Positions 17,139 through 53,331 of a stretch of DNA of 64,000 nt are shown here, piece after piece (position 1 is the first letter of the stretch; each line of letters starts with the position of its first letter). This stretch comes from a virus (lineage: Duplodnaviria; Caudoviricetes), in the IMG/VR virus record IMGVR_UViG_3300025848_000001, positions 1 through 64,000 of that record. One strand, written 5' to 3'. The notes under the pieces were generated by a model, which saw only the letters and a program-made list of their open reading frames with translations, was not told where the DNA came from and made no database searches. Position numbers and translations under genes: made by a program.

Positions 17139-17614
17139 TATACCTCTTCCATACTAAAGGAGACATTCCAGAAAGCGTTTACTCCTCGCTTAACTAATTG
17201 AAAACTACAATTTGTAAATGATACAGTATATTCTTCTTCATTAGTAGTACCATAATCTTTTGAACCGCCTTTTGCAAAATTTAATCTAATTTTAAAAGTT
17301 GATTTTCCTGAAGTGCTTTTATAAAATTCTCTTAAATCTTCCGCTCCCCACTTACCATCGGCTGTTTGAACCCTGTATGACGGGAGCATTGTCCAAGAAA
17401 CGTTAAACATTTTTTTATCATTTACATAAAATTTTCTTAATGTTCCATTTGCCATTCTTTGAGTTTCTTCAATTCTCAAAGAAGATACATCTACTTCTGA
17501 CCTATTATGATCAGATAATTCTATCCATGTTTCGGAAGTAAGTGCGGGGGTAGCAAGAGGGTCTTTTGCATATACTCTTATTAAATTACCCTTTGGTAAT
17601 GTTATAATTGTCAT
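17138..17614 (-). CDS. Distal tail protein-like
   Basis: Directly after the tape measure; RMANGTLRKFYV motif. Confidence 0.65.
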   Translation of the reverse strand: MTIITLPKGNLIRVYAKDPLATPALTSETWIELSDHNRSEVDVSSLRIEETQRMANGTLRKFYVNDKKMFNVSWTMLPSYRVQTADGKWGAEDLREFYKSTSGKSTFKIRLNFAKGGSKDYGTTNEEEYTVSFTNCSFQLVKRGVNAFWNVSFSMEEV

Positions 17615-35160: not shown

Positions 35161-36741
35161 CTACTCAACCTGTCTACCGTCGCCTTTTGCATTTCTGCCT
35201 TCCCCTGAATTATCTGGAGAATTTGCAGATCTATTTTGGTCTCTTTCACGACTTTGCATTGCTTGAGCTTTAATTTCAGCGGCCTGCGCCTGTAAATCAA
35301 CTGGCTTATCTCCGCCTTCTCTTGGCACTAACCCCATTCTCAATCTAATTTCATTAGGAGTCATTACCTGGAATCTTAAATATCTCTCATCAATTTTTGA
35401 CTGGGTATCAGAATCTGTCAAGCTTAATTCATTAAATTTAAGCTGGAGTGCATCTGTCATTTCCATAATAATTCTATTTAATTTCTTTTCTAGAATATCT
35501 TGTGCTGGGGCACATACCTGCTCTTTAAATGTTTTATCTGCATCCCTGGCATTTGCTAAAGATATTCCTGTGGCTGTTCCAATTTTATTTATTGGAACAC
35601 GATGAGCCATTAATATTTCATCTCTATTTGATTGTCTATAAATATTAAATGAAGACTCTTGAGCACCTGCCTCAATTGGTTCCATTTTAAATTCAGTTTT
35701 TGAATCTGGAGAATCTGGAGGCAATGGTATATATAAAGATCTGTGGTTTTTTCCACGAAGTCCAACCTGGAAAAATTCTAATAATTTACGTTCAGACTCT
35801 GGTGATAATTTAGCACCTTTAACGGTGATAATATATCTTGGGACTGCCTTATTTTCAAAATAATCTAAGTTATATTTTCCAGCAAATTCATTTCCAGCCA
35901 TTGCGCTTTGGGCTGCAATAATATCTGGAATTCCATAATAATTATTTTTTGGAGTATATTTCTTTAAATGAATAATTTCATTTGGTCTATCAGTAGCTCC
36001 AGCTATTGGATTTGCAGTTTCTTGATCTCCAAAATTACGGAAAAAAACTGCTTTGCCGTAAAGTAATTGTACAAAGCCATCTCTTAAACGTCTAACACGC
36101 ATGGTCTTTGAAGGAATATGTCCTATATATCCTATTTTCCCAGCAGTAGTTCTACCTATTTCTAAATAGCCATTTCCTGTTGCTTCTACGTCTGTGTAGA
36201 ACTTAATTAAAGTTTCTTTAAATGTTTCTTCTTCATTGCAATCTTCTAACCACTCATGCAAATCTTGTTTAATTCTAGAAAGTTTTCTACGGGCACGTTC
36301 TAATTGTTTTTCGTCTTCAATACCGTCCAACAAATCATTTGTCTTTTTTGTTTCTACAAAATCAAATCCTAAACCAACAATGTTGGCAACCTTAGCATTA
36401 ATTGCTGCATAATTATATGGAGATATCTCGTATATTGTAGATAAATAATCTAAATTATATTCAGGCATAACAAGATCAAATAATGCATATCCACTAACTG
36501 CCTGCTGTATTAATAACTGTTGAGTTGCTGTTCCTTCTGTTCCAACAAATTTTTTCTGTATATCTCTACTTACTCTTCTTCTAACTGCAGGGCTTAAACC
36601 ATTTAGCTTTAATATATCTTCGCCTTCAATAGAAAACGGATCTTGATTATTATTAATAGATGGGGTATTAAATTTCATCCAATCTGCTACATTAGATATT
36701 TCAATGTCTTGACTTGGTGTATCTTCTTCGTATTCAATCAT
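35161..36741 (-). CDS. Portal protein (PBSX/HK97-type)
   Basis: TGNGYLE, EIIHLK, YYGIP, YFENKAVP, HRVP, MTPNEIR motifs. Confidence 0.95.
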   Translation of the reverse strand: MIEYEEDTPSQDIEISNVADWMKFNTPSINNNQDPFSIEGEDILKLNGLSPAVRRRVSRDIQKKFVGTEGTATQQLLIQQAVSGYALFDLVMPEYNLDYLSTIYEISPYNYAAINAKVANIVGLGFDFVETKKTNDLLDGIEDEKQLERARRKLSRIKQDLHEWLEDCNEEETFKETLIKFYTDVEATGNGYLEIGRTTAGKIGYIGHIPSKTMRVRRLRDGFVQLLYGKAVFFRNFGDQETANPIAGATDRPNEIIHLKKYTPKNNYYGIPDIIAAQSAMAGNEFAGKYNLDYFENKAVPRYIITVKGAKLSPESERKLLEFFQVGLRGKNHRSLYIPLPPDSPDSKTEFKMEPIEAGAQESSFNIYRQSNRDEILMAHRVPINKIGTATGISLANARDADKTFKEQVCAPAQDILEKKLNRIIMEMTDALQLKFNELSLTDSDTQSKIDERYLRFQVMTPNEIRLRMGLVPREGGDKPVDLQAQAAEIKAQAMQSRERDQNRSANSPDNSGEGRNAKGDGRQVE

Positions 36742-37139: not shown

Positions 37140-39074
37140 TTATTGGTTAATTGTACGCTCCCATTCCAAATCATATGCCTCAACTGAGGATTCTGTCAGG
37201 GTCATGGACGAATTAGATAGGTCGAATAGGATATATACGTCACCATATCTGTATAAATTATAATTAGTTAATGCATCTAACGCAGTAAATTGATACTCAT
37301 ATAATGCAATATTCTGATATAGTCCCGAAGTGCCGCCGCCGATAGAAGAACCATTTATAATAATATCTCCCGTAATTGGCTCCATAAATGTCAAAACGAC
37401 ATAATTTAGATCTCCTTCGGTCAATATATCCTTAATATTGTTTTCGCCTGTCTTAGTGTAATTATTTACATATATTTCTTCTATATTTGCTCTGGCTATA
37501 TCTCCATTCGAATTCCAAGATAATAATGTAGTTCCAGCGAATATTATTGATCCAGCCTCAGAAAGGCTGTATGGGGTGTAGAAGAATTCTATTGTGTTTA
37601 TGTTGTCTGCGGTAGTTATTTTAAAGCTAGAGCCTGTATTGGCTTTTAAACCGTTTCTAGAGTCTCTCTGTAGGATCTCTGAGCTAACCCGTCCCAAAAC
37701 AAAAGACCCTTCTTCTGGAGTGATATAAGAAGGCCCATTTACGGCTAATTTTTTCATATTATTATAAAACTTTACAATTAAATAATTTAATCTGGGATTA
37801 TATCTACTTGAATCTAAAGTAGCAATTGTGACCCTAATAAATAATCTTCTTTCTTCGCTGAAGTTGTTAGATTGATATTGTGGAATTTCATCTCCATTAT
37901 TACATTGAACATATGATATACCATCATCACTTGTTTCTACAATTATGCCATTGTCTCCGTCCCACTCTATTTTAGACGAGTCCATAGTATTGCCTGGCAA
38001 AACAATTTCATCTTCTATTACAACTGTTTTTTCTTGAAGCGTTTCTGTTTTTAAAATTGATATATATTGTTTATCTTGATCAAAATATAAATCTTCAGTA
38101 ATAAATAATTCCCAAGCTTTATTAGATGGCCATGCGTACTGATAAGCTAATCTTGAATTATCGTCGTACAAATTAAACCATTCACCACCATTTGATTCAA
38201 TTAATTGAGACGGCCTAATTGCTTTAGCATCGTTATAATGATTATTAATTTGATTTTGAGATAAAGCATATCTATAAACACCAACACTATTTATAATAAA
38301 ATATTGTCCTATACCACAAGGACCTGTTTTAAAATTTACAGAATTTCTAGTAAATGGATTACTAGTTATTAATTTTGTAACCTCAAGAACATTATTGATA
38401 TAAAGAGATAAAGAAGAGTTTGTATAAATTGCAACGACATGGAACGCCTTATCTGTATATGGTATTGTATACTCTATTTTTTCTGTATCGACCTGAAATA
38501 CTATATTGTTTTTATAATAAAATAATCCTACTTCACTTCCCGTCGTTTTATCTGCAAATAAAGGTGTAAAAAATGATCCTGTTATTTTAGGCTTAAACCA
38601 AAGTTCTATTGTAAAATCATTATCTGCTGAATCTGACGTAGCAAATTTGCTAGACGTTGTTTGTCCAGAGTAATCTTTATCAATTATATATTCTATATAA
38701 TTTGAATCTCCTATTTTAGCCGCTGTTGAATTTCCTTTTACTATAGGGACAATTCCTCCTATTGGCCTTCCAACATATTTACTATTATTTTGACATTCAG
38801 AATTATCATACGCAATATCTCCTCCGAGATTTGCATAAGAAGCATATGCTGCTGCTACATCTGCATATGTTCCATAAGTTAAAAGTAATTCAGCATATGT
38901 TAAAGGTTTAGTTCCAGTTATTTGTTGATAACTATCATAATTATCTAAAATTTCTTGATAGTCTTCATTTTGTGCAAGCAGGTCTACATAACCAGCATCA
39001 CTAGATGTAGTAAAATCATCAAGAGGATAGTATGCTAGCGGGTAATCACTTAATACCGTAGATCTATAAGACAT
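37140..39074 (-). CDS. LamG/concanavalin A-like domain virion protein
   Basis: PLAYYPLD, FTIELWF, HVVAIY, LYINN, VYRYALSQNQINNHY. Confidence 0.8.
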   Translation of the reverse strand: MSYRSTVLSDYPLAYYPLDDFTTSSDAGYVDLLAQNEDYQEILDNYDSYQQITGTKPLTYAELLLTYGTYADVAAAYASYANLGGDIAYDNSECQNNSKYVGRPIGGIVPIVKGNSTAAKIGDSNYIEYIIDKDYSGQTTSSKFATSDSADNDFTIELWFKPKITGSFFTPLFADKTTGSEVGLFYYKNNIVFQVDTEKIEYTIPYTDKAFHVVAIYTNSSLSLYINNVLEVTKLITSNPFTRNSVNFKTGPCGIGQYFIINSVGVYRYALSQNQINNHYNDAKAIRPSQLIESNGGEWFNLYDDNSRLAYQYAWPSNKAWELFITEDLYFDQDKQYISILKTETLQEKTVVIEDEIVLPGNTMDSSKIEWDGDNGIIVETSDDGISYVQCNNGDEIPQYQSNNFSEERRLFIRVTIATLDSSRYNPRLNYLIVKFYNNMKKLAVNGPSYITPEEGSFVLGRVSSEILQRDSRNGLKANTGSSFKITTADNINTIEFFYTPYSLSEAGSIIFAGTTLLSWNSNGDIARANIEEIYVNNYTKTGENNIKDILTEGDLNYVVLTFMEPITGDIIINGSSIGGGTSGLYQNIALYEYQFTALDALTNYNLYRYGDVYILFDLSNSSMTLTESSVEAYDLEWERTINQ

Positions 39075-39522: not shown

Positions 39523-41196
39523 TTATACTGCTCCTCCTCCACCGCCACCGCAGCTGTCTCCACCAAAATCTCCTACGCTATAAGCACTAACCCCTGAAGA
39601 ATTTCTAGCTCTAACAAACCAATACCAACTTCCAGAAACTCCAACAGTAGCACTTGGAATTGTTATTCCAGTAAAATCTGCACCATCTCCTGTATACTGT
39701 GTTGAAGAAGATTGATACCATAATTCATAAGATGTTGCGCCAGATACTGCATTCCAAGATAAATTTGTTCCGCTTCCATTATTACAAGCAGTTAATCCTG
39801 TTGGAGTTGCTGGAGCAGTACTTCCACCACCACCACCACCTGGAGCTGTCCATGAAATACTAGAAGTAGCAGTGTGTCCTGTAGATGATGTAACGGTCAA
39901 TGAAATACTATATGTAGTTCCAGCTGTGTGAGTTCCTATATATTTTTGTCTATCTGCATCTGCTGTGCCAGTGAATGATGAACCTCCTCCAGCGCCTCCA
40001 GTTGATGGGTTAACTGATATAGAATATGTATCTTGATAATCTACTGTCCAGTTTACATATGTTAATGTGCTACTGTTAGTTACAGATAAACTGCTAATTG
40101 TAGGAACAATTGGAGTGACTGTCCATTGTGCATAAAGTGTTGTAGTTGATCCTGGTGTATATGATGACCCAACATCAACTATTTTTGTTCCACCTGAAGT
40201 ACTATTCCACCAACCAGTACATGTATAACCAGATCTTGTTGGTGTTGGAGCTGTGACAGAACTTCCAGCATTTACACTGCTTGATGTTGGACTAACAGAT
40301 CCACCATTTGCATCCCATGTGACCGTATAAGTATTTATTTGCCATTGTGCATATAATGTAACTGAAGCTGTAGGATAATATGTATTTCCTCCTCCATTAA
40401 TATAAGTACCTCCAGAGGATGCGGTATACCATCCAAGAAAACTATAATTTGTTCTAGATGGCGTAGGCAATACAACTCCACCAGAATTAGTTCCAGATGA
40501 AGATGTTGGACTAACAGATCCGCCATTTGCATTAAATGTTACTGTATAAGATATTGCAGACCATTGTGCATATATTGTTGTAGTAGATGGAGGAGTATAA
40601 GAATTATTTGTTGTTCCCAAATAAGTTCCACCAGAGGCTGCTGTATACCAACCATTAAAAGTATAATAATCTCTGCTTGCTGAAGGCAAAGTGACTGCAC
40701 TTCCAGCATTTACTGTTGTAGATGTAGAAGCATTTCCAAGTACAATTCCACCATTTCCATTATATGTAAGTGTATATGTTGAAGCAACTATTGTTATTCC
40801 ATTGCTTGAATTAGCAGAAAGCGTTCCCCTATTATTAACAGCTGTGACGGTACAAGTTATTGAATTTCCTATATCTGCTGTCACTGTAGTATATGTTGAA
40901 GATGTTGCACCAGATATATTAGATCCAGCTCTTTTCCATTGATAGGTGTATGATGTTGGAGCATATGCTAAGTTAGTATTCCAAGATCCGTTCGTTACAG
41001 ATAGTGTTTGTCCTTGTGTTGTAGATCCAGATACTGTTGGAGATCCTGTATTTATTGGATATTCTGGATACCATTGCTTCCATAGAGAGCCATTCCATAT
41101 CCAGCCTTTTGTTGCATTTTTCCATGCGGTACCGTTATAAAGTTTTAATCCATTTATATTTTTCCAATTAGCTCCGTCATGAATTTTTGTAACCAT
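39523..41196 (-). CDS. Ig-like virion protein with three Listeria-Bacteroides (InlB B-type) repeats and FN3
   Basis: 3x YTVTFNANGG...P.R..Y.F.GWYTA.SGGT...TLYAQW; N-terminal Ig (GQTLSVTNGSW...YQW); C-terminal APATPTGL FN3. Confidence 0.85.
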   Translation of the reverse strand: MVTKIHDGANWKNINGLKLYNGTAWKNATKGWIWNGSLWKQWYPEYPINTGSPTVSGSTTQGQTLSVTNGSWNTNLAYAPTSYTYQWKRAGSNISGATSSTYTTVTADIGNSITCTVTAVNNRGTLSANSSNGITIVASTYTLTYNGNGGIVLGNASTSTTVNAGSAVTLPSASRDYYTFNGWYTAASGGTYLGTTNNSYTPPSTTTIYAQWSAISYTVTFNANGGSVSPTSSSGTNSGGVVLPTPSRTNYSFLGWYTASSGGTYINGGGNTYYPTASVTLYAQWQINTYTVTWDANGGSVSPTSSSVNAGSSVTAPTPTRSGYTCTGWWNSTSGGTKIVDVGSSYTPGSTTTLYAQWTVTPIVPTISSLSVTNSSTLTYVNWTVDYQDTYSISVNPSTGGAGGGSSFTGTADADRQKYIGTHTAGTTYSISLTVTSSTGHTATSSISWTAPGGGGGGSTAPATPTGLTACNNGSGTNLSWNAVSGATSYELWYQSSSTQYTGDGADFTGITIPSATVGVSGSWYWFVRARNSSGVSAYSVGDFGGDSCGGGGGGAV

Positions 41197-41198
41197 GA

Positions 41199-42887
<1,689 letters not shown>

Positions 42888-42896
42888 AATTTTTAA

Positions 42897-43973
42897 TTAT
42901 ACCATCTGATATGTTCTAATATCTCGTTCATACCAGCCTTTCCCCCATAACTTTAATAAGTCTTGGAAGTATCTTTCATATTGATATTTTACAATATCTA
43001 CTGAATAAAGGGAAATTGCCCTATCCCTAATATATACTGGATCTAAGGATTTTACCGCCTCAACTGCCTCACAAAATTCTTCAAAAGTTCTACATCTAAA
43101 TCCAGTTTTGCCGTGCTCTACCGTTTCGGTAAATGCCCCCCAATCAGTTGTAATAACTGGAGTTCCACAAGCCTGGGATTCAATATTAACATTACCAAAA
43201 GGCTCTATATAAAGTGTTGGGACAAATGTAGCAATTGCATTACCCATAAGCTTAGCTCTTTCTTCTGGTCCAACGGGACCTACATATTCTCCATATCCTT
43301 TAAAATCTCCTGGGCCAGCAACTATCAACCTTTTACCTAATTCTTGACATACTTGTTGAGCTATGTGATAGCCTTTTCTATCTATTAGTCTTCCTATAAA
43401 TAAATAATAATCATCTTTTTTCTCTACAAGTGGAAACATTTCTGGATCTAAATATCCTGGAATAACTCTATCAAAAAATGCACCATTTGATGCTGCTGCA
43501 TCTTTATTCTGTGCATATATTGAATGCATCCAAGAATATGATTCAAATACTTTATATGGGCTAAAAACTCCTGAATATCCTACACCAAATTCTATAGATA
43601 TATGATTTGGAAATGAGTCAGCTATTATCTTATGAGCATGTCCACCAATTAAACAAATAAAATCTTTTTGTTTTATTCTTTTTCCTATTTCATTAATAGC
43701 AGTTCTGTTAAATGATACCCAATGTTGTTTTGTATAATCAAAAGACCCAGATGTAAAGTGCTGACCATTTAATGATTTTAATCTTTGTTCTTCTGTAATA
43801 CATGAAATTAATTCTGTAACTTCTGCCTCATTTTGATCTCCCGCATACAAATAAACTTCATGCCCCAAAGATTTCATCATATTACAAAAACGCCTAACTT
43901 TTTCTGTATAGGCGCAATTAACAAATTGTTTAGTTGTTTGAGTATGTGGTAAAGATACTACATGAAAACGCAT
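42897..43973 (-). CDS. Glycosyltransferase, GT-B fold (GT4 family)
   Basis: FIGRLIDRKG, EPFGNVNIESQACGTPVITTDWGA (Ex7E motif). Confidence 0.92.
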   Translation of the reverse strand: MRFHVVSLPHTQTTKQFVNCAYTEKVRRFCNMMKSLGHEVYLYAGDQNEAEVTELISCITEEQRLKSLNGQHFTSGSFDYTKQHWVSFNRTAINEIGKRIKQKDFICLIGGHAHKIIADSFPNHISIEFGVGYSGVFSPYKVFESYSWMHSIYAQNKDAAASNGAFFDRVIPGYLDPEMFPLVEKKDDYYLFIGRLIDRKGYHIAQQVCQELGKRLIVAGPGDFKGYGEYVGPVGPEERAKLMGNAIATFVPTLYIEPFGNVNIESQACGTPVITTDWGAFTETVEHGKTGFRCRTFEEFCEAVEAVKSLDPVYIRDRAISLYSVDIVKYQYERYFQDLLKLWGKGWYERDIRTYQMV

Positions 43974-44665
43974 TATTTAAGCCAGTGAGTTGTATACATG
44001 ATCTTACTGCCTTTAGTGACTGGTAAAGATTCATGTAGATATGGTGCAGTTGAAGGGAAAAGCACCAGGCTTCCAGCTTTTGGTTTTATTTTTACATCTT
44101 GATTTTTAAAATAAATTTCTCCGCCTTCATAATCATCATTAAGATATGTAACCATTGAATACTTTAAATTTGTTCCTGTGCCAGTAGGGTCTTCTGCGTC
44201 ACAATGTGGGCCCATACCCTGACCTTCATTATATTTATATAAATTTATATATTGTAAATTTATATTTGGTTTTTCTGGAACGTAATTAGATTTCATTTTT
44301 TTATGATAGATAATCTGTGTATCATAAAATCTATTTGCTGTCATTTCTGGAGACATCATAAGACTATTTATAACATATAAAATTTGTTTATTTAGGAAAT
44401 CATCGCCAGTATTTATATTTTTTTTAGAAGAATCAATATGTTTCCCAGAACCAATTATAAACGATTTATCATCGCTTGCGGTCCAATCTCCCCATTTACT
44501 TATTGCTTCATGGGACAATGGATTTAAATCAATTTTTTCTATTAAATCTACTAAAATTTCTGGATAGCTAACTGTATTTTCAAAATAATATATATTCTGA
44601 TGGTTGAAAACCATATCGAACATTACATACATCTGTCTTGGAGGTATGTTTTTAATTTCAAGCAT
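43973..44665 (-). CDS. 2OG-Fe(II) oxygenase, prolyl 4-hydroxylase-like
   Basis: PHCD...YLNDDYEGGEIYF...KPKAGSLVLFPS...HESLPV...K. Confidence 0.9.
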   Translation of the reverse strand: MLEIKNIPPRQMYVMFDMVFNHQNIYYFENTVSYPEILVDLIEKIDLNPLSHEAISKWGDWTASDDKSFIIGSGKHIDSSKKNINTGDDFLNKQILYVINSLMMSPEMTANRFYDTQIIYHKKMKSNYVPEKPNINLQYINLYKYNEGQGMGPHCDAEDPTGTGTNLKYSMVTYLNDDYEGGEIYFKNQDVKIKPKAGSLVLFPSTAPYLHESLPVTKGSKIMYTTHWLK

Positions 44666-45434
44666 CTATTTCTCCAGTTTCTGCTAACTCTGCATCATAT
44701 TCTTTCCAATCTGGAGTTATTCTTTTACCTTTGTTTCTTATCTCTTCCCACTCTTTTTGTTCTACAGCCTGCTTTGCTCTTGTTTCTTTAATTTCATCTT
44801 CCCAAGAAGATTTCTTATTTACATCATAAGCTTCCTCTGGCCTATCATCCCAAAATGATCCCACTGTGTATCTGTCATTTTTTGTTACAATTGTTACTTC
44901 ATGCATATTTTCATGGCCACCATCAAATATTGCGTACATACCAGCTTTTGGCTTTATACTTAAATCAAAATTTTTAAAATTTAATTCGCCTCCGCCAAAA
45001 TCATCATTGAGATACAAGAATCCTGCATATCTACTTCTTTCAAATGCGCTAGGAACTCCATCGTAGCTATTATCTGAATGAAATCCAGCAAATGCCCCAG
45101 GAATCCATTTTTGAGAATGAAAACTAATTTTATAAGCTGGGCCTCCAATAATTTGTTCTGCTCCCCATTTAAATTTTTCTTCTAAGTCTTCAAAAAAATT
45201 ATTTGGAAGTCCTGCATCTTTATACCATTTTTCTAAAGTCTTTGGATTGTTTGTAAGCTGATGCGGCATATTGTATGCATATGACTCATAAAAAGAAATT
45301 GGATGCCAGGAAAAATCTCCAGACTCTATTAAGTTATTAAACATTTTTATAATACCAGCACATTCCTCTGGCGTTATAAAATCTTCATAAACCCATACTG
45401 GGTGATCTCCTTCTCTATATTTTATTAAATTCAT
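44658..45434 (-). CDS. 2OG-Fe(II) oxygenase, prolyl 4-hydroxylase-like
   Basis: FHSD...YLNDDFGGGEL...HEVTIV...RYT. Confidence 0.9.
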   Translation of the reverse strand: MNLIKYREGDHPVWVYEDFITPEECAGIIKMFNNLIESGDFSWHPISFYESYAYNMPHQLTNNPKTLEKWYKDAGLPNNFFEDLEEKFKWGAEQIIGGPAYKISFHSQKWIPGAFAGFHSDNSYDGVPSAFERSRYAGFLYLNDDFGGGELNFKNFDLSIKPKAGMYAIFDGGHENMHEVTIVTKNDRYTVGSFWDDRPEEAYDVNKKSSWEDEIKETRAKQAVEQKEWEEIRNKGKRITPDWKEYDAELAETGEIDA

Positions 45435-46300
45435 TTATATAAATCTCCTTCTAATGGAATGTTTTCAATTATATCTTCATAAGGAATAATCTTTCCATCT
45501 TTAACATATAACATATTTCTTGGATCTTCATAAGCAACTCTTTCTAGTTCTTGCTTAGCCCATCTGTACGCTCCCAATCTTTTTTGATTAGCAAGCCATT
45601 CCTGTGACCCATCATAATCTGTCATAATAAAATTTCTAATAAAAAACTTATTGCCGTCTGGTATTGTTTTTACTCCATGCCAATATGGCTCGCCTGATGG
45701 AAAAACAACAATGTCTCCAGCTTTTGGCTTATGGTTTATAAACTGACCATCTATATAAAATTCTATATCTCCACCATTATAATTATCATTTATATAAAAA
45801 GTGCATGTAGTATGAAATTTTTCTCCTGGCATATCTTTTTGAGAAATAATAAAATCCGTATGATATTGCATTGTCATTTTATTATTTAACTGATCAATTT
45901 TATTAAAGTATTTACACCAAGATTGTCCGCTATATCTTGCATTTTCTGGAATTTTAATATTAGTATGTTTAAAATAATGTGAAATTGCTTTATCGTAAGA
46001 AACAGCTATCTCTTCATATAATTTTTTTTCTTCTTCAAAAATAATGCCTTTTTCGGCAGAATCAATTTCGCCTTCGCCTTTTGCCTGTGTATAAGTTCCA
46101 AAATGTGCCCAAGCATCCCATGTTTTAAAAAAATATTTTCCGTTACTGCTTTCTTCTGATCTCATCATAATTTTATATGCACTATCTGGATCAGACAACA
46201 TATTTCTATATACAATTATTCCTGGATATATTTCTTCCCAAGATAGCTCGTGTAAATCTTCTCTTAAATTTAAGTTATGCATTTTGCGAATCTCCTCCAA
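45431..46300 (-). CDS. 2OG-Fe(II) oxygenase, prolyl 4-hydroxylase-like
   Basis: YHTD...YINDNYNGGDI...HGVKTI...K. Confidence 0.9.
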   Translation of the reverse strand: MEEIRKMHNLNLREDLHELSWEEIYPGIIVYRNMLSDPDSAYKIMMRSEESSNGKYFFKTWDAWAHFGTYTQAKGEGEIDSAEKGIIFEEEKKLYEEIAVSYDKAISHYFKHTNIKIPENARYSGQSWCKYFNKIDQLNNKMTMQYHTDFIISQKDMPGEKFHTTCTFYINDNYNGGDIEFYIDGQFINHKPKAGDIVVFPSGEPYWHGVKTIPDGNKFFIRNFIMTDYDGSQEWLANQKRLGAYRWAKQELERVAYEDPRNMLYVKDGKIIPYEDIIENIPLEGDLYK

Positions 46301-47045
46301 AATATTTCTGCCATGCTGGTGATTTATAAAAATTATTTTCCGAACCTTCTGGTGGTTGTTTTTCTCCAGTATGCTTTAGGATGGTCCAAAAAAATGGAGA
46401 TGTAAATCTATTACCAGATCTTACTGGACGAACTCCATGTACATAATGTTTATCGCCTGGGAAAAAATATGCTGCACCAGCTTTGGGCTTGAACTCTATA
46501 CCCTGTCTTGGGAAATATAATTCTCCTCCTTCATAATCGTCATTAAAATAAAATAAGCCAGCAATGTCATACCATGGAAAATCATTTGGTCTTCCTTCTT
46601 CTAATCCAGTATGAAATTCTTTATCTGCGTGTGGTTCTTGTCTTGCCCCTACAGGCCATCTAACTATAGCAGGACCTGTCGCTTGAACATCAACATTAAA
46701 AAATTTATCTACTTCTATTTTTAATCTATCAATCATTTGCCACAATAAATCAACTATCTCTGGGTCAGATTTCATCAAAGAATTACCAGTACACACTCTA
46801 TCTTTCCAAATATTAGCATCATATAAAACAATACCATCTTCATCTACGTGTGTTTCTGTTTCGTCCCAAACTTTATTATTTAAAGCAAAATTTATTAATC
46901 TTTCTTTTTCTTCTTCTGTTAAAAAATTTGGAAGCTCTACTATATTACTAATATCTGTACCAAAAAATCCAGATGGGGTTACAGATATTGGGGCTCTTCC
47001 TCCGCCCATTATACCTTGATTTACTATTTCCACTGATTCTCCCAT
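46275..47045 (-). CDS. 2OG-Fe(II) oxygenase, prolyl 4-hydroxylase-like
   Basis: PHAD...YFNDDYEGGELYF...HGVRPV...RFT. Confidence 0.9.
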   Translation of the reverse strand: MGESVEIVNQGIMGGGRAPISVTPSGFFGTDISNIVELPNFLTEEEKERLINFALNNKVWDETETHVDEDGIVLYDANIWKDRVCTGNSLMKSDPEIVDLLWQMIDRLKIEVDKFFNVDVQATGPAIVRWPVGARQEPHADKEFHTGLEEGRPNDFPWYDIAGLFYFNDDYEGGELYFPRQGIEFKPKAGAAYFFPGDKHYVHGVRPVRSGNRFTSPFFWTILKHTGEKQPPEGSENNFYKSPAWQKYFGGDSQNA

Positions 47046-47069
47046 ACTATTAATATATCATATTTAAAT

Positions 47070-47798
47070 TTAAATATCTATAGTTTTATCAATAATCTTT
47101 AATTTTATTGATTTTACTTCATGTTCGCCTATTGAATTTCCTTTATGATCAACTGCATCTCTATAAAAATTAGACCATTCTGCTTTCTTATTTAATTCAA
47201 TAATTGCTTGAGAGTATCCAATATTATCAGCATGATCATCACTTTCATGATTTAATATATGAACTTCTGAATTATTTATATTTGAAAGTGATATTGGAAT
47301 TATTGAACATATTGGATGACCTGCTGGAATTGTTATTTCTGTATTTGGTTTTGTTATCATCCAGGCTACTGGTAATTCCCCTTTAAAAAATGAAGTACTT
47401 ATTAATGTAGTAAAACATTGTGCCCCGTCAATAAAAAAATTAGGGGCTGGCATAGTAAGCAATGTAGTATTTTCATCGGTTTTAAATTTAATACCTGTAT
47501 TAAAACTTATTGTTGAATTTGCCCTTCCAGTGTAGGCATATTTTTCTCCTTTTATAATTTTAACATGTTTATCAGCAGAGTCAGAGATACCGTCCCAAAT
47601 AAATGTAATGTCTTCTGGAAATGATAAATACCAGCCTAATGTATTTGTTAATGTAACTGGAAAACAATGATACGCATGTTTTTTCCAAGTTTTATCCATC
47701 CAATTTCTTTTTACTGGTAAAGTATTTATTTGTGATAAATTTTTATTAGTAAGATATGCCTTTATGACTTCCATCTTTATCACTTTCTCTTGGCACAT
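47070..47798 (-). CDS. DUF6065-like protein
   Basis: R.WMD...HAYHCFPVTLTNTLGW...WDG pattern recalled for DUF6065; start may be 47774. Confidence 0.65.
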   Translation of the reverse strand: MCQEKVIKMEVIKAYLTNKNLSQINTLPVKRNWMDKTWKKHAYHCFPVTLTNTLGWYLSFPEDITFIWDGISDSADKHVKIIKGEKYAYTGRANSTISFNTGIKFKTDENTTLLTMPAPNFFIDGAQCFTTLISTSFFKGELPVAWMITKPNTEITIPAGHPICSIIPISLSNINNSEVHILNHESDDHADNIGYSQAIIELNKKAEWSNFYRDAVDHKGNSIGEHEVKSIKLKIIDKTIDI

Positions 47799-48447
47799 TA
47801 GAATTCATTTTTTTCATTCTAAGCATATCAAAATCTGGATTATGTGTATTATCGTTATAATCCAACATAGTAACTATAGAATATTTTGTTCCAGTAGTGA
47901 CTGGTTTTGCTACATGAGAAAATAAATAAGTAGATGGGAATATAACAATATCGCCAGCCTCTGGCTTAATTGTTAATTTAAGTTTTGGAAAATAAAGTTC
48001 TCCACCTTCATAATCATCATTTGGATAAGAAACTAAAGATACTGTGGCTATATAAGAATATCCGTGATCTGAATGCTCTTGAAAATGTTGACCTGGGCCA
48101 TATTTAATAAAATTCATGGCTTCCCAATATTTCATTTCAATATTATACATTCTGCAATAATCTTTGACTGCATTAATTTGCATATCATATGCGTACTGCC
48201 AAATGTCGTTTAATTCTTTTCTTGCGTTATCCATGTCCATAACTTGTATGTTTTGTATTTTAAAATCAACACAATCTCTATAAGATGGAACTTTTTGAGC
48301 ATACCCTACAGTAGCTTCTGCCCAACTATATTTATCTGGATATTTTTTTAAAAAATTTTCTACATTATCAATTATATTTTTATTGATCTGATTTTTGTAT
48401 ACCCAGATTCCAGCAAATACTTCTTGCTTAACAATGTCATTAGACAC
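47746..48447 (-). CDS. 2OG-Fe(II) oxygenase, prolyl 4-hydroxylase-like
   Basis: EHSD...YPNDDYEGGELYF...HVAKPV...KYS. Confidence 0.9.
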   Translation of the reverse strand: MSNDIVKQEVFAGIWVYKNQINKNIIDNVENFLKKYPDKYSWAEATVGYAQKVPSYRDCVDFKIQNIQVMDMDNARKELNDIWQYAYDMQINAVKDYCRMYNIEMKYWEAMNFIKYGPGQHFQEHSDHGYSYIATVSLVSYPNDDYEGGELYFPKLKLTIKPEAGDIVIFPSTYLFSHVAKPVTTGTKYSIVTMLDYNDNTHNPDFDMLRMKKMNSNVPRESDKDGSHKGISY

Positions 48448-48455
48448 TAATATCT

Positions 48456-48872
48456 CTATTCTTTAAACTGTGTACCGTCCCATGACATTCCAATTTTTAA
48501 ATTAGAATATTCCATATCAGTACAATCTACAGCAATAACCCCTTCGGATTCTGCAATATTAAATAGCGCTTTTCTTTTTTCTGTCCAAACTTTTATAATA
48601 CCTTTTACTGAGTTATCTTGAACTATCGCAAAAGCATATGGAGAATCTGTTGCTTTTCTTTCTAATTCACCTTCTACAAAAGAAGAAGTATTTGGATCCC
48701 ATACAGATCCAATTTGTACCTTTTTATTATTAGAAACATCTTTTAATAAAATAGGGTTGGAAAGAATTGAAGTATATCTTTCAACTCTTTCCAAGCTATC
48801 TCTAGATTCTTCTAGGTCGATAAACTCTATAATACCGTTAGTATTTGTGACAAGTGCCCAAACTTTTTTCAT
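48456..48872 (-). CDS. Hypothetical protein with internal duplication (possible fibre chaperone)
   Basis: Two half-repeats ending IGSVWD...F and IGMSWDGTQF; follows the FN3 gene. Confidence 0.6.
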   Translation of the reverse strand: MKKVWALVTNTNGIIEFIDLEESRDSLERVERYTSILSNPILLKDVSNNKKVQIGSVWDPNTSSFVEGELERKATDSPYAFAIVQDNSVKGIIKVWTEKRKALFNIAESEGVIAVDCTDMEYSNLKIGMSWDGTQFKE

Positions 48873-48921
48873 TTTTTTCTCCTTATGTGTAGTGTACCAA
48901 AATTATATAATTTAGTCAATA

Positions 48922-49815
48922 TTAATAAAATCTTGGCGACCAGAAACCACCGAATCCTGGAGGCGCAAAGAATCCTGGAGGCGCAAAGAATCCTGGAGGC
49001 GCAAAGAATCCTGGAGGCGCAAAGAATGATGGAGGCGCAAAGAATGATGGAGGCGCAAAGAATGATGGAGGCGCAAAGAATGATGGTGGGAAAAATGGAG
49101 GCGCAAAAAATCCTGGTGGGAAAAATGGAGGCGCAAAAAATCCTGGTGGGAAAAATGGCGGCGCAAAGAATCCTGGTGGGAAAAATGGCGGGCTAAAAAA
49201 TGATGGAGCTAATGTTGTTACAGGAGCTGAATATATACTAAATGCTCCAGAACCGTTAGCATTTCTAGCTCTAACTCTATAAGACTGGCTAGTATTTGGC
49301 TCATTTGTTATTGTTGTGCTACCACTACCTGCTTGTGTTACAGTTTTTGTTTTTGCTGGAGTTTCATTAGATTCAATATAATAATCTATAATTGTTGAAC
49401 CACCATCTGCTGGAGCAGTCCATGTGACTGTATCAGCATCTACTCCTGCCGTTGCTCCTGGCTGACTTGGTGCAGCTGGAACTGTTGTTACAACTATTGC
49501 AGAACTTGTTGTTCCAACACATTCCCCGTAAGCATCATATGATCTAATTGTATATGTATTAGAAGAACCTGTTGCTAATAAGGTATCTGAATAAGTGTTT
49601 GATGGGTGCGCTACAGTTGCAATTAACGATCCATTTCTATAAACTTTATAACCCGATGGAGTATTACCTGTAGATGGATTTGTCCAAGACAAATCTATTC
49701 TTCCATCATTGTATGGTCTGTTAGAAGGAAGAGGTGTAACAACTAAATTAGTCACACACGCTGGTCCGATAAAGTTATCTTGTGCTGATGACTTTGTACC
49801 TATATTTTTTGTCAT
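48922..49815 (-). CDS. Two-FN3-domain protein with Pro/Phe-rich C-terminal repeat tail
   Basis: LSWTNP...YKVY and VTWTAPADGGSTIIDY...YRVRARNANG FN3 domains, then (FFAPP/FFPP)n. Confidence 0.85.
   Translation of the reverse strand: MTKNIGTKSSAQDNFIGPACVTNLVVTPLPSNRPYNDGRIDLSWTNPSTGNTPSGYKVYRNGSLIATVAHPSNTYSDTLLATGSSNTYTIRSYDAYGECVGTTSSAIVVTTVPAAPSQPGATAGVDADTVTWTAPADGGSTIIDYYIESNETPAKTKTVTQAGSGSTTITNEPNTSQSYRVRARNANGSGAFSIYSAPVTTLAPSFFSPPFFPPGFFAPPFFPPGFFAPPFFPPGFFAPPFFPPSFFAPPSFFAPPSFFAPPSFFAPPGFFAPPGFFAPPGFFAPPGFGGFWSPRFY
48950..49205. repeat. Coding tandem repeats (18-bp and 30-bp units) encoding [GS]FFAPP and GFFAPPFFPP
   Basis: GGAGGCGCAAAGAATCCT / GGAGGCGCAAAGAATGAT units in direct tandem on the plus strand. 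Confidence 0.95.
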
Positions 49816-49832
49816 TATTTATCCCCTATTCT

Positions 49833-52800
49833 TTATGCTTTCAAATCTCCAGCAAGCAACCAGGTGTTGGTTGCAACTTTAGTAAGCGTTGCTGATGAAT
49901 ATGTTGTTCTTAATGTTGCTCCTGGTGTAGCTAATATTGAAACTGATACATCAGCTCCAACAAAATTACCACCTGTGCCTGCTGATTGATAAAAGCTTAT
50001 TGTTGTTCCAACTGGATAAGCAGTAGTTGCATTTGTTGGAACTGTTATAGCGTGTGCTCCACCAACTGGAATTAATTGATCTCTTAATGCTAACCCACCT
50101 GTTGATAAGTTATAAGCACCTGTTGTAGCTGCTGCAATTGTTGTTAATGATGGAACTGCAGCTTTTGTTTGTGTTCCATCTGTGAATGCTACTCCAGATG
50201 CTGCAACTGTTACGGTTCCTGTAAATGTTGGATTTGCAGTTGGAGCCTTTGCATCTAATTGTGTTTGAATTGCTGAAGTAACACCATCAAGGTATCCAAT
50301 TTCTGTATCTGAAACTCCAGACACTCTGTATTGAACAGTTGATGAATCTACGGCAAGTGTACCTGGTGTAGTTTCTGTTAAACCAGTTCCAGCAGTTACT
50401 GCCTTAGCGGCGTTAAATGCTGCGTATGTAACATTTGTTGTTCCAATTGTAATTGCTGATGTATTAGAGCAAACATATCCATAACCTGAGTTTACTGTAC
50501 CTTCAAGAACAAGAGTAAAATCTCCACCCTTTAATTCTCCGTCTGGTGTATTATCTGCATCTGTTGCTCTTGTCCATGAACCTGAAGCAACTACATAAAT
50601 ACCATTTTGTGTCTGTGTAGTTTGATCTTTTACAAGAACACGATCACCGACTGATAGAGAAACTCCATCAATTGTTTGTGTTCCGCTAAGCGTAATATTT
50701 CCTGTTGTAGCAACACGAACTGGCTGATGGAAATTAATTCCTGCAGTTACATTGTCTACATATGCTTTTGTTGCTGCATGTGCGTCTTGTGTAGGTGCGC
50801 CCGAAAGTGTAAGTGCTCCTGTCATTGTTCCGCCAGCAAGAGATAGCTTAGCATCTAACGCTGTTTGTGTTGCAGTAGAAACTGGCTTATTAGCATCTGA
50901 TGTATTGTCTACGTTACCAAGGCCAACCATTGACTTAGATACACCAGAAACTGTTCCAGTAAATGTTGGAGAAGCAATAGGTGCATAAGTTGAAGCGGCA
51001 GTAGCAGAATTTAATTTAGAATCTATCTGTGTTTGAATTGCAGACGTAACGCCATCTAAATATCCTAATTCAGTACTTGAAACATCTCCAACTGAAGTTG
51101 TAGATGGCAAAACAACAGTTCCTGTAAAAGTAGGTCCAGCAAGAGGAGCTTTAAGAGCTAAATCTGATGTGAGGTTAGCAATCTTAGATTGTTCAATTGC
51201 TGCAGAAGAGTTAATATCTGCATTTACAATTGTTGCATTTGCAATCTTTGCTGATGTTATAGAACCATCAAGAATTTTAATTTCTGTTACTGCATCGTCT
51301 GCAAGTTTTGCAGTTGTAACAGATTCGGCTGCAATTTTATCAGTTGTTACATTACTATCTGCAATTTTAGCTGTTGTAACAGAATCAGAAGCTAATTTAT
51401 CAGATGTTACTGCTTGATTATTTATTTTTTCTGTTGTAACTGATATATTATCTAACTTGGAAGTCGAAACAGCTCCATCTGCAATTTTACTATCTATAAC
51501 AGAAGAGTCTGCTAGTCTTGTAGTGGTAACAGACCCTACGGCAAGCTTGTCTGTTGTAATTGCATCATCTAATATTTTTTCTGTTGTTACTGCATCTGTT
51601 GCAATTTTTGTATTTGTTACAGCAGCAAATCCAATCTTATCTTCTGTTACTGCTGAATCTGCTAATTTAGCTGTAGTAACGTTACTGTCTGCTATTTTAA
51701 TAGTAGTAACGTTATCATCTGCTATTTTCTCAGTAGTTACAGCCTGAACATCTATTTTTGCTGTTGTAATACTTGCATTTGCAATTTTATCAGTTGTTAC
51801 AGCATTATTTGCAATTTTTTGAGTTATTACAGAATCATCTACTGGGGTTCTTTCATTATTTAATCTTATATCGTCTGTATAAACTAAATTAGCTGTATTA
51901 TTTATACCGTGTATATTAGTTGTTAAATTTTGATGTGCTGTGAGCGCATTATCAGTATTTGAAATTAATCCTGTAACTGTAGATGCAAAACTTTCATCAT
52001 CATTAATTGCTGCTGCAAGTTCATTTAATGTATTAAGAAGTCCTGGAGCTCCATCTACTAAATTATTAACTGCAGTAGAAACAAATGCAGTTGTAGCAAT
52101 TTGAGTTGTATTTGTCGATGGATCTGCTGTTGGAGCAGTTGGAGTTCCTGTTAATGCAGGGGATGTTAATGATTTAGAAGTTAATGTCTGATTTCCATCA
52201 AGAGTAACTAATGCTGCTGTATCTACAATTCCATGAACATTTGTTTGATCACTATTATGATTATCTAAAGCGTCTGATGCTGCTGAAATTGCTGCAACTT
52301 GTGCATTTAATGCTGAATTGTCTGCATAGTCTGTTGCATTTGTTAATTGACTTAGTGGAACTAGCGTGTCTGCATCTAATGTGGCTACGCCTAATGCTGT
52401 TCCTTTTTCTGATAGTGGAACATAATCTCCAATAGTGTTATTAAGATTATTTCCTAAATTAGTAATTTCATCATCTACATATTGTTTTGTAGAAATTACA
52501 TCGGTATCAACTGATACTGTTAGGGTATTTGCAGCATCATTATAATTCTTTGTTATACCTGTTCCCGCCGTCAAAGCTTGATCGATAGAATCCTGGGCAA
52601 CTTCAGCTAATTCTGCCTTAGTAGCAATTACGGAAGTATCAACAGATACTGTTATTGTGTTTGCGCCATCATTATATGACTTAACAATACCAGTTCCAGC
52701 AACAAGGGCTGCGTCAATAGCATCTTGTGCTATTTCGCTAATTTCTGGATTGTCTGCTGCTATATAATTTAATGAAGCCCAGCCAGTGGTGCCATCACCA

Positions 52801-52916
52801 ATTTTAACTTTTCGTGTGTCTGTTTCAACACCCATTTCGCCAGCTGCTAGAATTGGGTTTGCGCTGGTCCATTGAGAGGCTGTACCTCTTCTAATTTGTA
52901 ATCTTACTGTTGCCAT
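49833..52916 (-). CDS. Long virion fibre with Mtd-N/hyaluronidase-type N-terminal domain and decapeptide repeats
   Basis: LQIRRGTASQWTSANPILAAGEMGVETDT..KIGDG..W; about 20 AVTTAKIADS repeats; GDRVLVKDQ...NGIY domain. Confidence 0.85.
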   Translation of the reverse strand: MATVRLQIRRGTASQWTSANPILAAGEMGVETDTRKVKIGDGTTGWASLNYIAADNPEISEIAQDAIDAALVAGTGIVKSYNDGANTITVSVDTSVIATKAELAEVAQDSIDQALTAGTGITKNYNDAANTLTVSVDTDVISTKQYVDDEITNLGNNLNNTIGDYVPLSEKGTALGVATLDADTLVPLSQLTNATDYADNSALNAQVAAISAASDALDNHNSDQTNVHGIVDTAALVTLDGNQTLTSKSLTSPALTGTPTAPTADPSTNTTQIATTAFVSTAVNNLVDGAPGLLNTLNELAAAINDDESFASTVTGLISNTDNALTAHQNLTTNIHGINNTANLVYTDDIRLNNERTPVDDSVITQKIANNAVTTDKIANASITTAKIDVQAVTTEKIADDNVTTIKIADSNVTTAKLADSAVTEDKIGFAAVTNTKIATDAVTTEKILDDAITTDKLAVGSVTTTRLADSSVIDSKIADGAVSTSKLDNISVTTEKINNQAVTSDKLASDSVTTAKIADSNVTTDKIAAESVTTAKLADDAVTEIKILDGSITSAKIANATIVNADINSSAAIEQSKIANLTSDLALKAPLAGPTFTGTVVLPSTTSVGDVSSTELGYLDGVTSAIQTQIDSKLNSATAASTYAPIASPTFTGTVSGVSKSMVGLGNVDNTSDANKPVSTATQTALDAKLSLAGGTMTGALTLSGAPTQDAHAATKAYVDNVTAGINFHQPVRVATTGNITLSGTQTIDGVSLSVGDRVLVKDQTTQTQNGIYVVASGSWTRATDADNTPDGELKGGDFTLVLEGTVNSGYGYVCSNTSAITIGTTNVTYAAFNAAKAVTAGTGLTETTPGTLAVDSSTVQYRVSGVSDTEIGYLDGVTSAIQTQLDAKAPTANPTFTGTVTVAASGVAFTDGTQTKAAVPSLTTIAAATTGAYNLSTGGLALRDQLIPVGGAHAITVPTNATTAYPVGTTISFYQSAGTGGNFVGADVSVSILATPGATLRTTYSSATLTKVATNTWLLAGDLKA

Positions 52917-53307: not shown

Positions 53308-53331
53308 GGTGGGGGATTTTATTCCCCCACC
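53308..53331. terminator. Hairpin (terminator-like)
   Basis: GGTGGGGGA-TTTTAT-TCCCCCACC. Confidence 0.65.

Follow-up and report, generated by a model that had tools for sequence, protein, structure and literature searches.

The window analysed here covers the first 64 kb of IMG/VR virus record IMGVR_UViG_3300025848_000001, which is complete, measures 119.8 kb and carries direct terminal repeats. Its minus strand carries, from 41199 to 52916, a single tightly packed late operon within the fibre/portal module. The operon encodes five oxygenases of the prolyl 4-hydroxylase (P4H)-like, 2-oxoglutarate (2OG)/Fe(II) type, a DUF6065 protein, and a protein in which two fibronectin type III (FN3) domains are followed by a Phe/Pro repeat. 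With moderate confidence, we regard this core as a candidate virion-protein tailoring cassette, in which Pro-rich tracts would be hydroxylated and DUF6065 would serve as a shared targeting or partner module. The genes, including a glycosyltransferase of family 4 (GT4) and an accessory open reading frame (ORF), are listed below; every gene named in an earlier note on this DNA was found on the minus strand, at the position and in the order given there.

49833-52916, minus strand: fibre protein of 1027 aa, directly upstream (PHROG tail-fibre and head-decoration families; conserved synteny)
48922-49815, minus strand: FN3x2-(FFxPPx)n repeat protein of 297 aa, the proposed substrate (Pfam fn3; AlphaFold2 (AF2) model)
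48925-49209, minus strand: repeat tail, residues 203-297 (Tandem Repeats Finder (TRF) periods 18 and 30)
48456-48872, minus strand: accessory ORF of 138 aa (in 9 of 62 related islands)
47746-48447, minus strand: oxyA, P4H-like 2OG/Fe(II) oxygenase with H125, D127, H178 and K188 (PF13640, 51.4 bits)
47070-47798, minus strand: DUF6065 protein (PF19541, 106.6 bits)
46275-47045, minus strand: oxyB, P4H-like oxygenase with H139, D141, H203 and R213 (PF13640)
45431-46300, minus strand: oxyC, P4H-like oxygenase with H147, D149, H208 and K218 (PF13640)
44658-45434, minus strand: oxyD, P4H-like oxygenase with H119, D121, H178 and R188 (PF13640)
43973-44665, minus strand: oxyE, P4H-like oxygenase with H154, D156, H211 and K221 (PF13640, 57.8 bits)
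42897-43973, minus strand: GT4-type glycosyltransferase (Pfam Glycos_transf_1, 59.7 bits)
41199-42887, minus strand: collagen-like fibre of 562 aa (Pfam Collagen, 150.9 bits in five stretches)
37140-39074, minus strand: conserved 644-aa protein, right boundary of the island, two genes before the portal
35161-36741: portal

The oxygenase genes overlap as claimed, with 26 nt shared by oxyB and oxyC, 4 nt by oxyC and oxyD, and 8 nt by oxyD and oxyE, and the GT4 start meets the oxyE stop in a TAATG. The duplicated domain ascribed to the 138-aa ORF was not borne out, as its halves align only at E 0.13. The gene arrangement is more than chance, because it is kept in all 62 related loci that span the island.

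Repeat protein, oxygenases and DUF6065

The repeat protein is composed of two β-sandwich FN3 domains, modelled by AF2 with a predicted local distance difference test (pLDDT) score above 90 at residues 20-200, and a repetitive tail. The ~90 aa of Phe/Pro repeats described earlier proved to be a real tandem array, with ~15 FFxPPx/FFPP units in residues 203-290 (TRF period 18 with 13.5 copies; period 30 with 4.7 copies and 91% match), followed by the short aromatic C-terminus GFGGFWSPRFY. The tail is predicted to be unstructured (AF2 pLDDT 38-51) and would thus be accessible. Among 53 distinct orthologues, the unit count varies from 5 to 22, the residue after FF is Ala, Ser or Gly, and the residue after PP is Gly in 57%. 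A repeat search over 5.8 billion proteins returned FN3-fused family members only and therefore offers no independent test.

In 32 of the 53 distinct orthologues, the repeat is followed by a domain of 160-190 aa. Its first residue, Cys or Ser, lies precisely where the Pro-rich tract stops; the domain contains a T/SxxH block and, in the Cys type, ends in HN. Its profile (A1) matches the bacterial intein-like (BIL) domain 2lwy at 1.5e-5, together with many inteins, and the Pfam Hint matches, both here and in the proteins of other lineages, are all below cut-off. By these comparisons, the domain is a Hint domain without a C-extein, from which cleavage or transfer is expected instead of splicing. 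It resembles Hint/BIL domains in its Cys1/Ser1 and T/SxxH block, but differs from them in having no C-extein and in always following a Pro-rich tract beside tailoring enzymes. No Hint domain was found in the window's own repeat protein or elsewhere in its genome.

All five window oxygenases exceed the PF13640 cut-off (34.6-57.8 bits vs 27), and five further PF13640 oxygenases are encoded elsewhere in the genome. The HxD..H triad and basic 2OG-binding residue claimed for the five are kept; the iron triad and a Lys or Arg at H+10 are present in all ten paralogues and invariant in the orthologue alignments of oxyA and oxyE (A3 and A4). Pairwise likeness is limited to the catalytic core, with 27-48% identity over 50-110 aa. 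When compared with the Protein Data Bank, the oxyE orthologue profile best matches the P4H of PBCV-1 (5c5t, 9.5e-10). Both the oxyA and oxyE profiles match the Bacillus anthracis P4H at 3e-9 to 7e-9 (oxyA, 6.6e-9), and oxyE also matches an uncharacterised Shewanella PKHD-type hydroxylase (3dkq, 4.6e-9). Lower-ranked matches include prolyl 3-hydroxylase 1 and PiuC, and for oxyA also the lysyl hydroxylase LH3. Judged by these profiles, no solved enzymes stand nearer to oxyA and oxyE than the prolyl 4-hydroxylases of PBCV-1 and B. anthracis. In PHROGs, the oxygenases are labelled 'auxiliary metabolic gene' (AMG). A role in DNA hypermodification was rejected, since the enzymes are not of the TET/JBP type and are located in late fibre operons.

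The DUF6065 protein lies far above the PF19541 cut-off of 26.6 bits, and its AF2 model (pLDDT 91.6) folds into a dUTPase-like β-barrel (VIA Z 10.3 to 1dun, rmsd 4.7 over 119 aligned residues; Foldseek probability 1.0, E 1e-4 to dUTPases). Across phage, fused and bacterial members, the invariant columns are R31, W33, C45, P47, N52, G55, W68, G70, N120, P168 and Y212. Upon inspection of the alignment, none of the five dUTPase motifs was recognisable, including the motif III Asp and the P-loop-like motif V, and an active dUTPase was rejected on this ground. The whole family contains 1397 representatives at 50% identity. A tblastn search of DUF6065 against cultured phages gave no match.

Four classes of modifying enzymes occur as fusions with DUF6065. 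In phages it is fused to PF13640 oxygenases, and in Alphaproteobacteria to Cupin_8/JmjC oxygenases, with a tally of 39 of 401 genomes that includes G042, which is flagged unpublished and underlies nothing else reported here. It is further joined to a Stf0 sulfotransferase (in the set P0231/P0284/P0251) and to a PrmA-like methyltransferase (L148). The association of a single domain with four kinds of enzymes would be the signature of a shared targeting or partner module. No fused DUF6065 was recovered with a length window starting from 470 aa, and scans with the single proteins P0226, P0207 and P0295 were unproductive. The set P0231, P0284 and P0251 includes, besides the Stf0 fusion, fusions to an Arm-type DNA-binding domain and an AraC-type helix-turn-helix domain, both of which may stem from gene calling. 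A separate class of stand-alone phage DUF6065 proteins of 247-259 aa (L125, L127, L130, L132, L133, L136, L142-L144 and L155) has no oxygenase, Pro-rich or Hint gene nearby, and its function may differ.

Conservation of the island and its counterparts in unrelated phages

Repeat-protein orthologues were found in 207 IMG/VR loci, from which 80 related loci were taken and labelled with hidden Markov models (HMMs) built from the window genes. The 62 loci that span the region from the repeat gene to the 644-aa protein were treated as complete islands. All 62 contain the repeat gene and at least five oxygenases, and 60 contain DUF6065; collagen is present in 18 and the small 138-aa ORF in nine. HMM labelling found GT4 in none of the 62 islands and none of the 80 loci. 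In all relatives, the 1027-aa fibre adjoins the cassette on its left. The FN3-(FFxPPx)n gene is located directly upstream of the array in all 62 loci, which were seeded by the repeat protein itself. Seeding by DUF6065 only yielded nine contigs, all of them phage contigs mis-binned in metagenome-assembled genomes (MAGs), and the repeat gene is upstream in the five out of five whose flank reaches that far. The window phage is a freshwater phage and its clade is very abundant, as reflected by the 207 repeat-protein loci and by 2148 clusters of close DUF6065 relatives at 90% identity.

The island is plastic, with extra oxyA copies and DUF6065-like paralogues in 39 of the 80 loci. Among the accessory genes, Sulfotransfer_2 occurs in 11 loci, an AspH-like oxygenase in 10 and a short-chain dehydrogenase/reductase (SDR) in six. 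The earlier note had overlooked the sulfotransferase and methyltransferase partners, the Hint domain found after the repeat in most orthologues, the DUF6065 fold and its tailoring-enzyme fusions, and two further oxygenase/DUF6065 clusters in the same genome.

The latter two clusters lie beyond the window. The genome contains two more DUF6065 copies, each after an oxygenase: one at 115224-115919 (52.6 bits to PF19541) and a weaker one at 81438-82214. The second cluster (111924-119067) contains, in this order, RecA, oxyJ, oxyI, a 115-aa ORF and the former DUF6065 paralogue. Near it are a PD-(D/E)XK nuclease and an APS-kinase-like/cytidylyltransferase-like gene (111924-112685), which could supply 3'-phosphoadenosine 5'-phosphosulfate (PAPS) for sulfation. 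The third cluster (79953-87290) contains oxyF and oxyG, then the weaker DUF6065-like gene, oxyH and a weak 2OG-FeII_Oxy_5 gene. It also harbors a 408-aa fusion of an Asp/Asn β-hydroxylase with PF13640 (85264-86490) and a sulfotransferase-like gene (86487-87290). A Sulfotransfer_2 scan of the genome gave no match while its control was equally silent, and phmmer then gave a transitive homologue. The sulfotransferase-like, AspH+PF13640 and DUF6065-like (81438-82214) genes of the third cluster are homologous to in-island genes of relatives, so this cluster may belong to the same system in trans. The genome has a single other Pro-rich ORF, a 712-aa PA14-domain protein with a SPEPSPEP-type linker at 98099-100237, which is another conceivable P4H substrate.

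The association extends to unrelated phages. A DUF6065 DNA motif pattern that excludes the window clade (AN instead of TN) retrieved 32 IMG/VR loci, in which an ORF was called Pro-rich if it had at least 12 Pro in 30 aa. In 19 of these loci, DUF6065 has an oxygenase fused to it or next to it; a Pro-rich ORF is present in 14 of the 19 and is followed by a Hint-like domain in 11, and three of the five exceptions are truncated by contig ends. None of the 13 loci with stand-alone DUF6065 or without DUF6065 has such an ORF (Fisher p = 3e-5; collapsed by lineage, 7/9 vs 0/10, p = 7e-4). Pro-rich genes co-occur with oxygenases and DUF6065 across phages, and the phages that carry the cassette range in GC content from 31 to 61%. 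Their neighbouring genes belong to tail-fibre or virion PHROGs.

The Pro-rich partners are diverse. Proteins of 228-231 aa have P20-23 directly before a Cys-type Hint domain, and a 778-aa protein has P18 followed by Cys-Hint. An (IPAPFFPP)n-Hint protein adjoins ten oxygenases, a (FFPPHFPPHFPP)n protein without Hint adjoins five, and a (PPFFPFF)n protein has a Ser-type Hint domain. The repeats among the partners include (FFPPHFPP)n, and one partner has a C-terminal P23. The element common to all partners is PP and not FF, which favours Pro over Phe as the target. The profile of the foreign polyPro-Hint proteins (A7) matches PI-SceI at 1.1e-5 and BIL at 1.2e-3, and the Pfam Hint matches, though sub-threshold, start exactly at the Cys. 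Looking up the representatives with DUF6065 fusions, we found additional independent cases, namely two polyPro-Hint genes in L113 (GC 41%), a polyPro-Cys-Hint in a stop-to-stop frame in L116/117 (GC 61%), and a Pro-rich virion protein in L111. Of the window paralogues, oxyB scores best against the oxygenase half of the L111 and L112 fusions, and oxyE marginally better against that of L113. A sulfotransferase-like gene, called only from an 'RSGT' motif and an Atlas lead, and a weak methyltransferase lie between a polyPro-Hint gene and a DUF6065 fusion. The large virion family phrog_358 (L113:1-4086 and L111:1-2247) has a polyPro linker followed by a DP(L/I)AQ(T/S)F motif, and in L113 a Hint-like insert lies exactly between the two.

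Proposed pathway and alternative explanations

The Pro-rich neighbours and the P4Hs as nearest solved relatives suggest peptidyl-proline as a candidate oxygenase substrate. In the pathway that we propose, the FN3x2 protein would display on the virion a disordered, polyproline-II-prone (FFxPPx)n tail, whose prolines the five divergent oxygenases would hydroxylate, with separate paralogues possibly responsible for different Pro positions or regiochemistries. DUF6065 would be the common substrate-targeting or partner module for enzymes acting on the tract. In other lineages, the same module would bring in the P4H-like and JmjC oxygenases, the sulfotransferase and the methyltransferase to which it is fused or adjacent. 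In most relatives, the C-terminal Hint domain would cleave itself off at Cys1/Ser1 through an acyl shift. Moreover, the sulfotransferase-like, AspH-like and further oxygenase/DUF6065-like genes at 79953-87290 may act in trans. Of the scheme put forward in the earlier note, the comparative genomics supports a tie of the oxygenases and DUF6065 to a Pro-rich virion protein and favours Pro over Phe as the target, and does not support a GT4 step on the displayed tail.

GT4 itself exceeds the Glycos_transf_1 cut-off (59.7 bits vs 26.4), with an EX7E motif, E-PFGNVNI-E, in its translation. It is absent from all 80 related loci, and its orthologues in cyanophages (36-39% identity) are located beside Thr-rich collagen-like fibres. 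In ACG-2014f the order is collagen, two ORFs, glycosyltransferase, 2OG oxygenase, an ORF and tail fibre, and in S-CBWM1 a collagen-like 'tail fiber' precedes the glycosyltransferase. The collagens of the window, ACG-2014f and S-CBWM1 share an unusual composition, with Ala/Pro at X and Thr at Y. Thus GT4 probably acts on the collagen-like fibre, most likely as a Thr-O-glycosyltransferase of the GxT repeats by analogy with BclA, the Thr-rich GxT collagen-like glycoprotein that carries O-glycosylation. The parallel between the phage GT4 and the BclA glycosyltransferases is one of analogy. GT4 and the Thr-rich collagen would form a pair of their own that is shared horizontally and added to the core, with GT4 as a genome-specific accessory gene. 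Extensin-like glycosylation of the tail by GT4 was rejected, as the only glycosyltransferase pairs with collagen elsewhere, and the likeness to extensin fails as well: the repeat is FFxPPx, with no extensin-type Ser-Pro motif, and no Hyp-glycosyltransferase is present.

Several observations weigh against the proposed tailoring of the Pro-rich tract. Its support comes from genomic context throughout. At least 12 oxygenase domains are encoded in the genome, grouped in three clusters, of which the one near RecA and the one at 79953-87290 lie at a distance from any Pro-rich gene, and five enzymes for a hexapeptide with two prolines exceed the need of simple 4-hydroxylation. The SDR, the sulfotransferase, the APS-kinase-like gene and the nucleotide-binding-type fold are equally compatible with small-molecule or glycan chemistry. 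Cyanomyoviruses possess several such oxygenases without a known link to a Pro-rich protein. The Alphaproteobacterial DUF6065 genes, including the JmjC fusions, have no Pro-rich or Hint neighbour among the few ORFs within ~1.5 kb on either side, and in ten phage loci DUF6065 stands alone, with no oxygenase and no Pro-rich gene. In addition, 20 of the 53 orthologues, including that of the window, have no Hint domain, which is therefore not essential.

Four other explanations of the cassette were weighed. The oxygenases could form an AMG-like island of paralogues directed at host or other phage targets and located beside the repeat gene only because the interval from the fibre genes to the portal is a hot spot of insertion, which we consider doubtful. 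Such an island would fit the plasticity of the block, which has 5-9 oxygenases and a swapped oxyC/oxyD order in some relatives, the sporadic SDR, sulfotransferase, AspH, GT4 and collagen genes, the two additional clusters in the same genome, and the absence of the entire block from the related Streptomyces phage StarPlatinum; cyanomyoviruses with up to 5-6 such genes of unassigned role are a parallel. A hot spot, however, fails to explain why unrelated phages pair DUF6065 and oxygenase with Pro-rich/Hint genes over the GC range given above, while loci without oxygenase never adjoin such genes. The same association would be left unexplained by a pathway that modifies cell-surface polysaccharide or makes a modified small molecule or nucleotide sugar for the fibres. 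This we regard as very unlikely, even if the nucleotide-hydrolase-type fold of DUF6065, the SDR in six and Sulfotransfer_2 in 11 related loci, the carbohydrate-type Stf0 sulfotransferase fused to DUF6065, the APS-kinase-like gene and the GT4 of the window genome would all suit it. None of the dUTPase motifs is represented among the invariant residues of DUF6065, the accessory enzymes occur sporadically while the Pro-rich gene is constant, and the PF13640 enzymes nearest to the P4Hs act on peptidyl proline.

A role in translation is also conceivable but distinctly unlikely. PPG and PPP runs stall ribosomes, and the enzymes would hydroxylate elongation factor P (EF-P), ribosomal proteins or other translation factors to allow synthesis of the Pro-rich virion protein; such a dependence would account for the co-occurrence of the genes. 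The PF13640 and Cupin_8/JmjC families include hydroxylases of ribosomal proteins and translation factors (OGFOD1/Tpa1, YcfD and JMJD4/7), and PrmA, which resembles the methyltransferase half of L148, methylates ribosomal protein L11. Bacterial DUF6065::JmjC fusions without a Pro-rich neighbour among the ORFs inspected, and oxygenase clusters in the early and replication regions, fit such a host-directed role. PP(G/S/P) runs are present in all partners, and ribosome stalling at XPPX, with its dependence on EF-P, is established (bioRxiv 10.1101/2024.04.15.589488). A single enzyme should suffice for this purpose, whereas conservation extends to 5-10 distinct paralogues; the top matches among solved structures are P4Hs of the collagen and viral types, not OGFOD1 or YcfD; the late fibre operons would be expressed too late for preparing ribosomes; and the co-conserved Hint domain and sulfotransferase are not accounted for. 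Highly improbable, finally, is that the oxygenases mainly mature the collagen by modifying its X-position Pro, with a GT4 acting as in mimivirus or BclA and the repeat protein a bystander. The contiguity of oxyE, GT4 and collagen, the ACG-2014f tail-fibre module that joins collagen, glycosyltransferase and 2OG oxygenase, and the B. anthracis P4H among the best solved matches point this way. However, 44 of the 62 islands have no collagen and still keep 5-7 oxygenases, and all 18 islands with collagen have the same five. Collagen is thus not their main substrate and was rejected as such for the five core enzymes; at most one extra or shared enzyme could serve it.

An extended form of the tailoring pathway would resemble the biosynthesis of ribosomally synthesized and post-translationally modified peptides (RiPPs). 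DUF6065 would recruit hydroxylases, sulfotransferases and methyltransferases, and the Hint domain would generate a thioester that is resolved by a defined nucleophile, not water, for example the new hydroxyl of a hydroxyproline or an acceptor on the virion or host. As a result, the virion would bear a hydroxylated, perhaps sulfated polyproline whisker that is crosslinked through esters or covalently anchored. We consider this form unlikely. DUF6065 is similar to a RiPP recognition element (RRE) in working principle only: one small domain occurs with four classes of modifying enzymes, a repetitive precursor-like gene and a self-cleaving end. It differs in that its fold is dUTPase-like and not PqqD-like, that the 'precursor' is fused to FN3 or virion domains, and that no protease or cyclase gene was seen. 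The 228-231-aa polyPro-Hint genes would release a peptide of ~35 aa.

No account of the cassette turned up in the literature searched, which covered DUF6065, hydroxyproline in phages, oxygenases of freshwater actinophages and polyPro-Hint. The nearest parallel to the proposed tailoring of virion prolines is PBCV-1, whose vCPH (5c5t) is a virus-encoded monomeric enzyme of the P4H-type 2OG/Fe(II) class with the same HxD..H..K(+10) pattern. It acts on viral Pro-rich repeats such as (PAPK)n, and the PBCV-1 genome also encodes Pro-rich repeat proteins. PBCV-1 differs in being a eukaryotic virus with one enzyme, no DUF6065, no Hint domain and an enzyme gene that does not adjoin its substrate gene, whereas the phage late operon contains 5-10 deeply diverged paralogues. 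For oxyA and oxyE, the B. anthracis P4H (3itq, 5hv0) ranks first or second among solved structures, and the Thr-rich, O-glycosylated BclA parallels the GT4-collagen pair. We know of no link between this P4H and a Phe/Pro repeat. Among phages, ACG-2014f has one oxygenase in its collagen/glycosyltransferase/tail-fibre module. The T4-like cyanophages resemble the window phage in having several PF13640-type genes per genome, labelled AMG and with no substrate assigned, but no DUF6065, Hint or Pro-repeat partner is reported for them. DNA repair or 2OG sensing have been proposed as roles for the multiple 2OG-Fe(II) oxygenase genes of marine T4-like cyanophages (Sullivan et al. 2010, PMC3037559).

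Genes for 2OG-Fe(II) oxygenases are among the commonest AMGs reported in aquatic phages, with their substrates unassigned. If the proposed tailoring is true, a large class of them would be virion-maturation enzymes, AMG catalogues would be read differently, and the cassette would provide the first example of a phage structural protein hydroxylated by enzymes. The proposal offers a testable role for three families, namely DUF6065, the (FFxPPx)n/polyPro-Hint proteins and the recurrent sulfotransferase-like partner. Of practical interest, compact P4Hs from bacteria or phages whose Pro-rich substrates are defined might be combined with self-cleaving Hint tags to make hydroxylated collagen-like or polyproline materials.

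Genome setting and further observations

The genome is of the siphovirus type, with portal, protease and major capsid genes and a very long tape-measure ORF (3445 aa) at 17614-27951 of the window. A megablast search of the region against cultured phages gave no match. The portal shares 57-60% identity with its counterparts in Streptomyces phages of Stanwilliamsviridae. The ribonucleotide reductase-portal stretch of StarPlatinum contains neither fibre nor oxygenase block, and the block is hence specific to the aquatic clade of ~35% GC. An actinobacterial MAG labelled Acidimicrobiaceae (G004) contains four contigs of the window clade (C61, C64, C79 and C102), which either hints at the host, in keeping with a portal like that of Streptomyces phages, or reflects an artefact of binning.

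Between the collagen and the 644-aa protein lies a Ser/Thr/Gly-rich protein of 557 aa with repeated units of ~70 aa (39523-41196), for which no homologue was detected in any of the 80 related loci. A promoter and terminator scan of the region performed no better than on shuffled sequence. The strongest terminator-like element of the region is a perfect 9-bp GC-rich hairpin (GGTGGGGGA...TCCCCCACC) at 53308-53331 of the window, located in the gap between two fibre genes.

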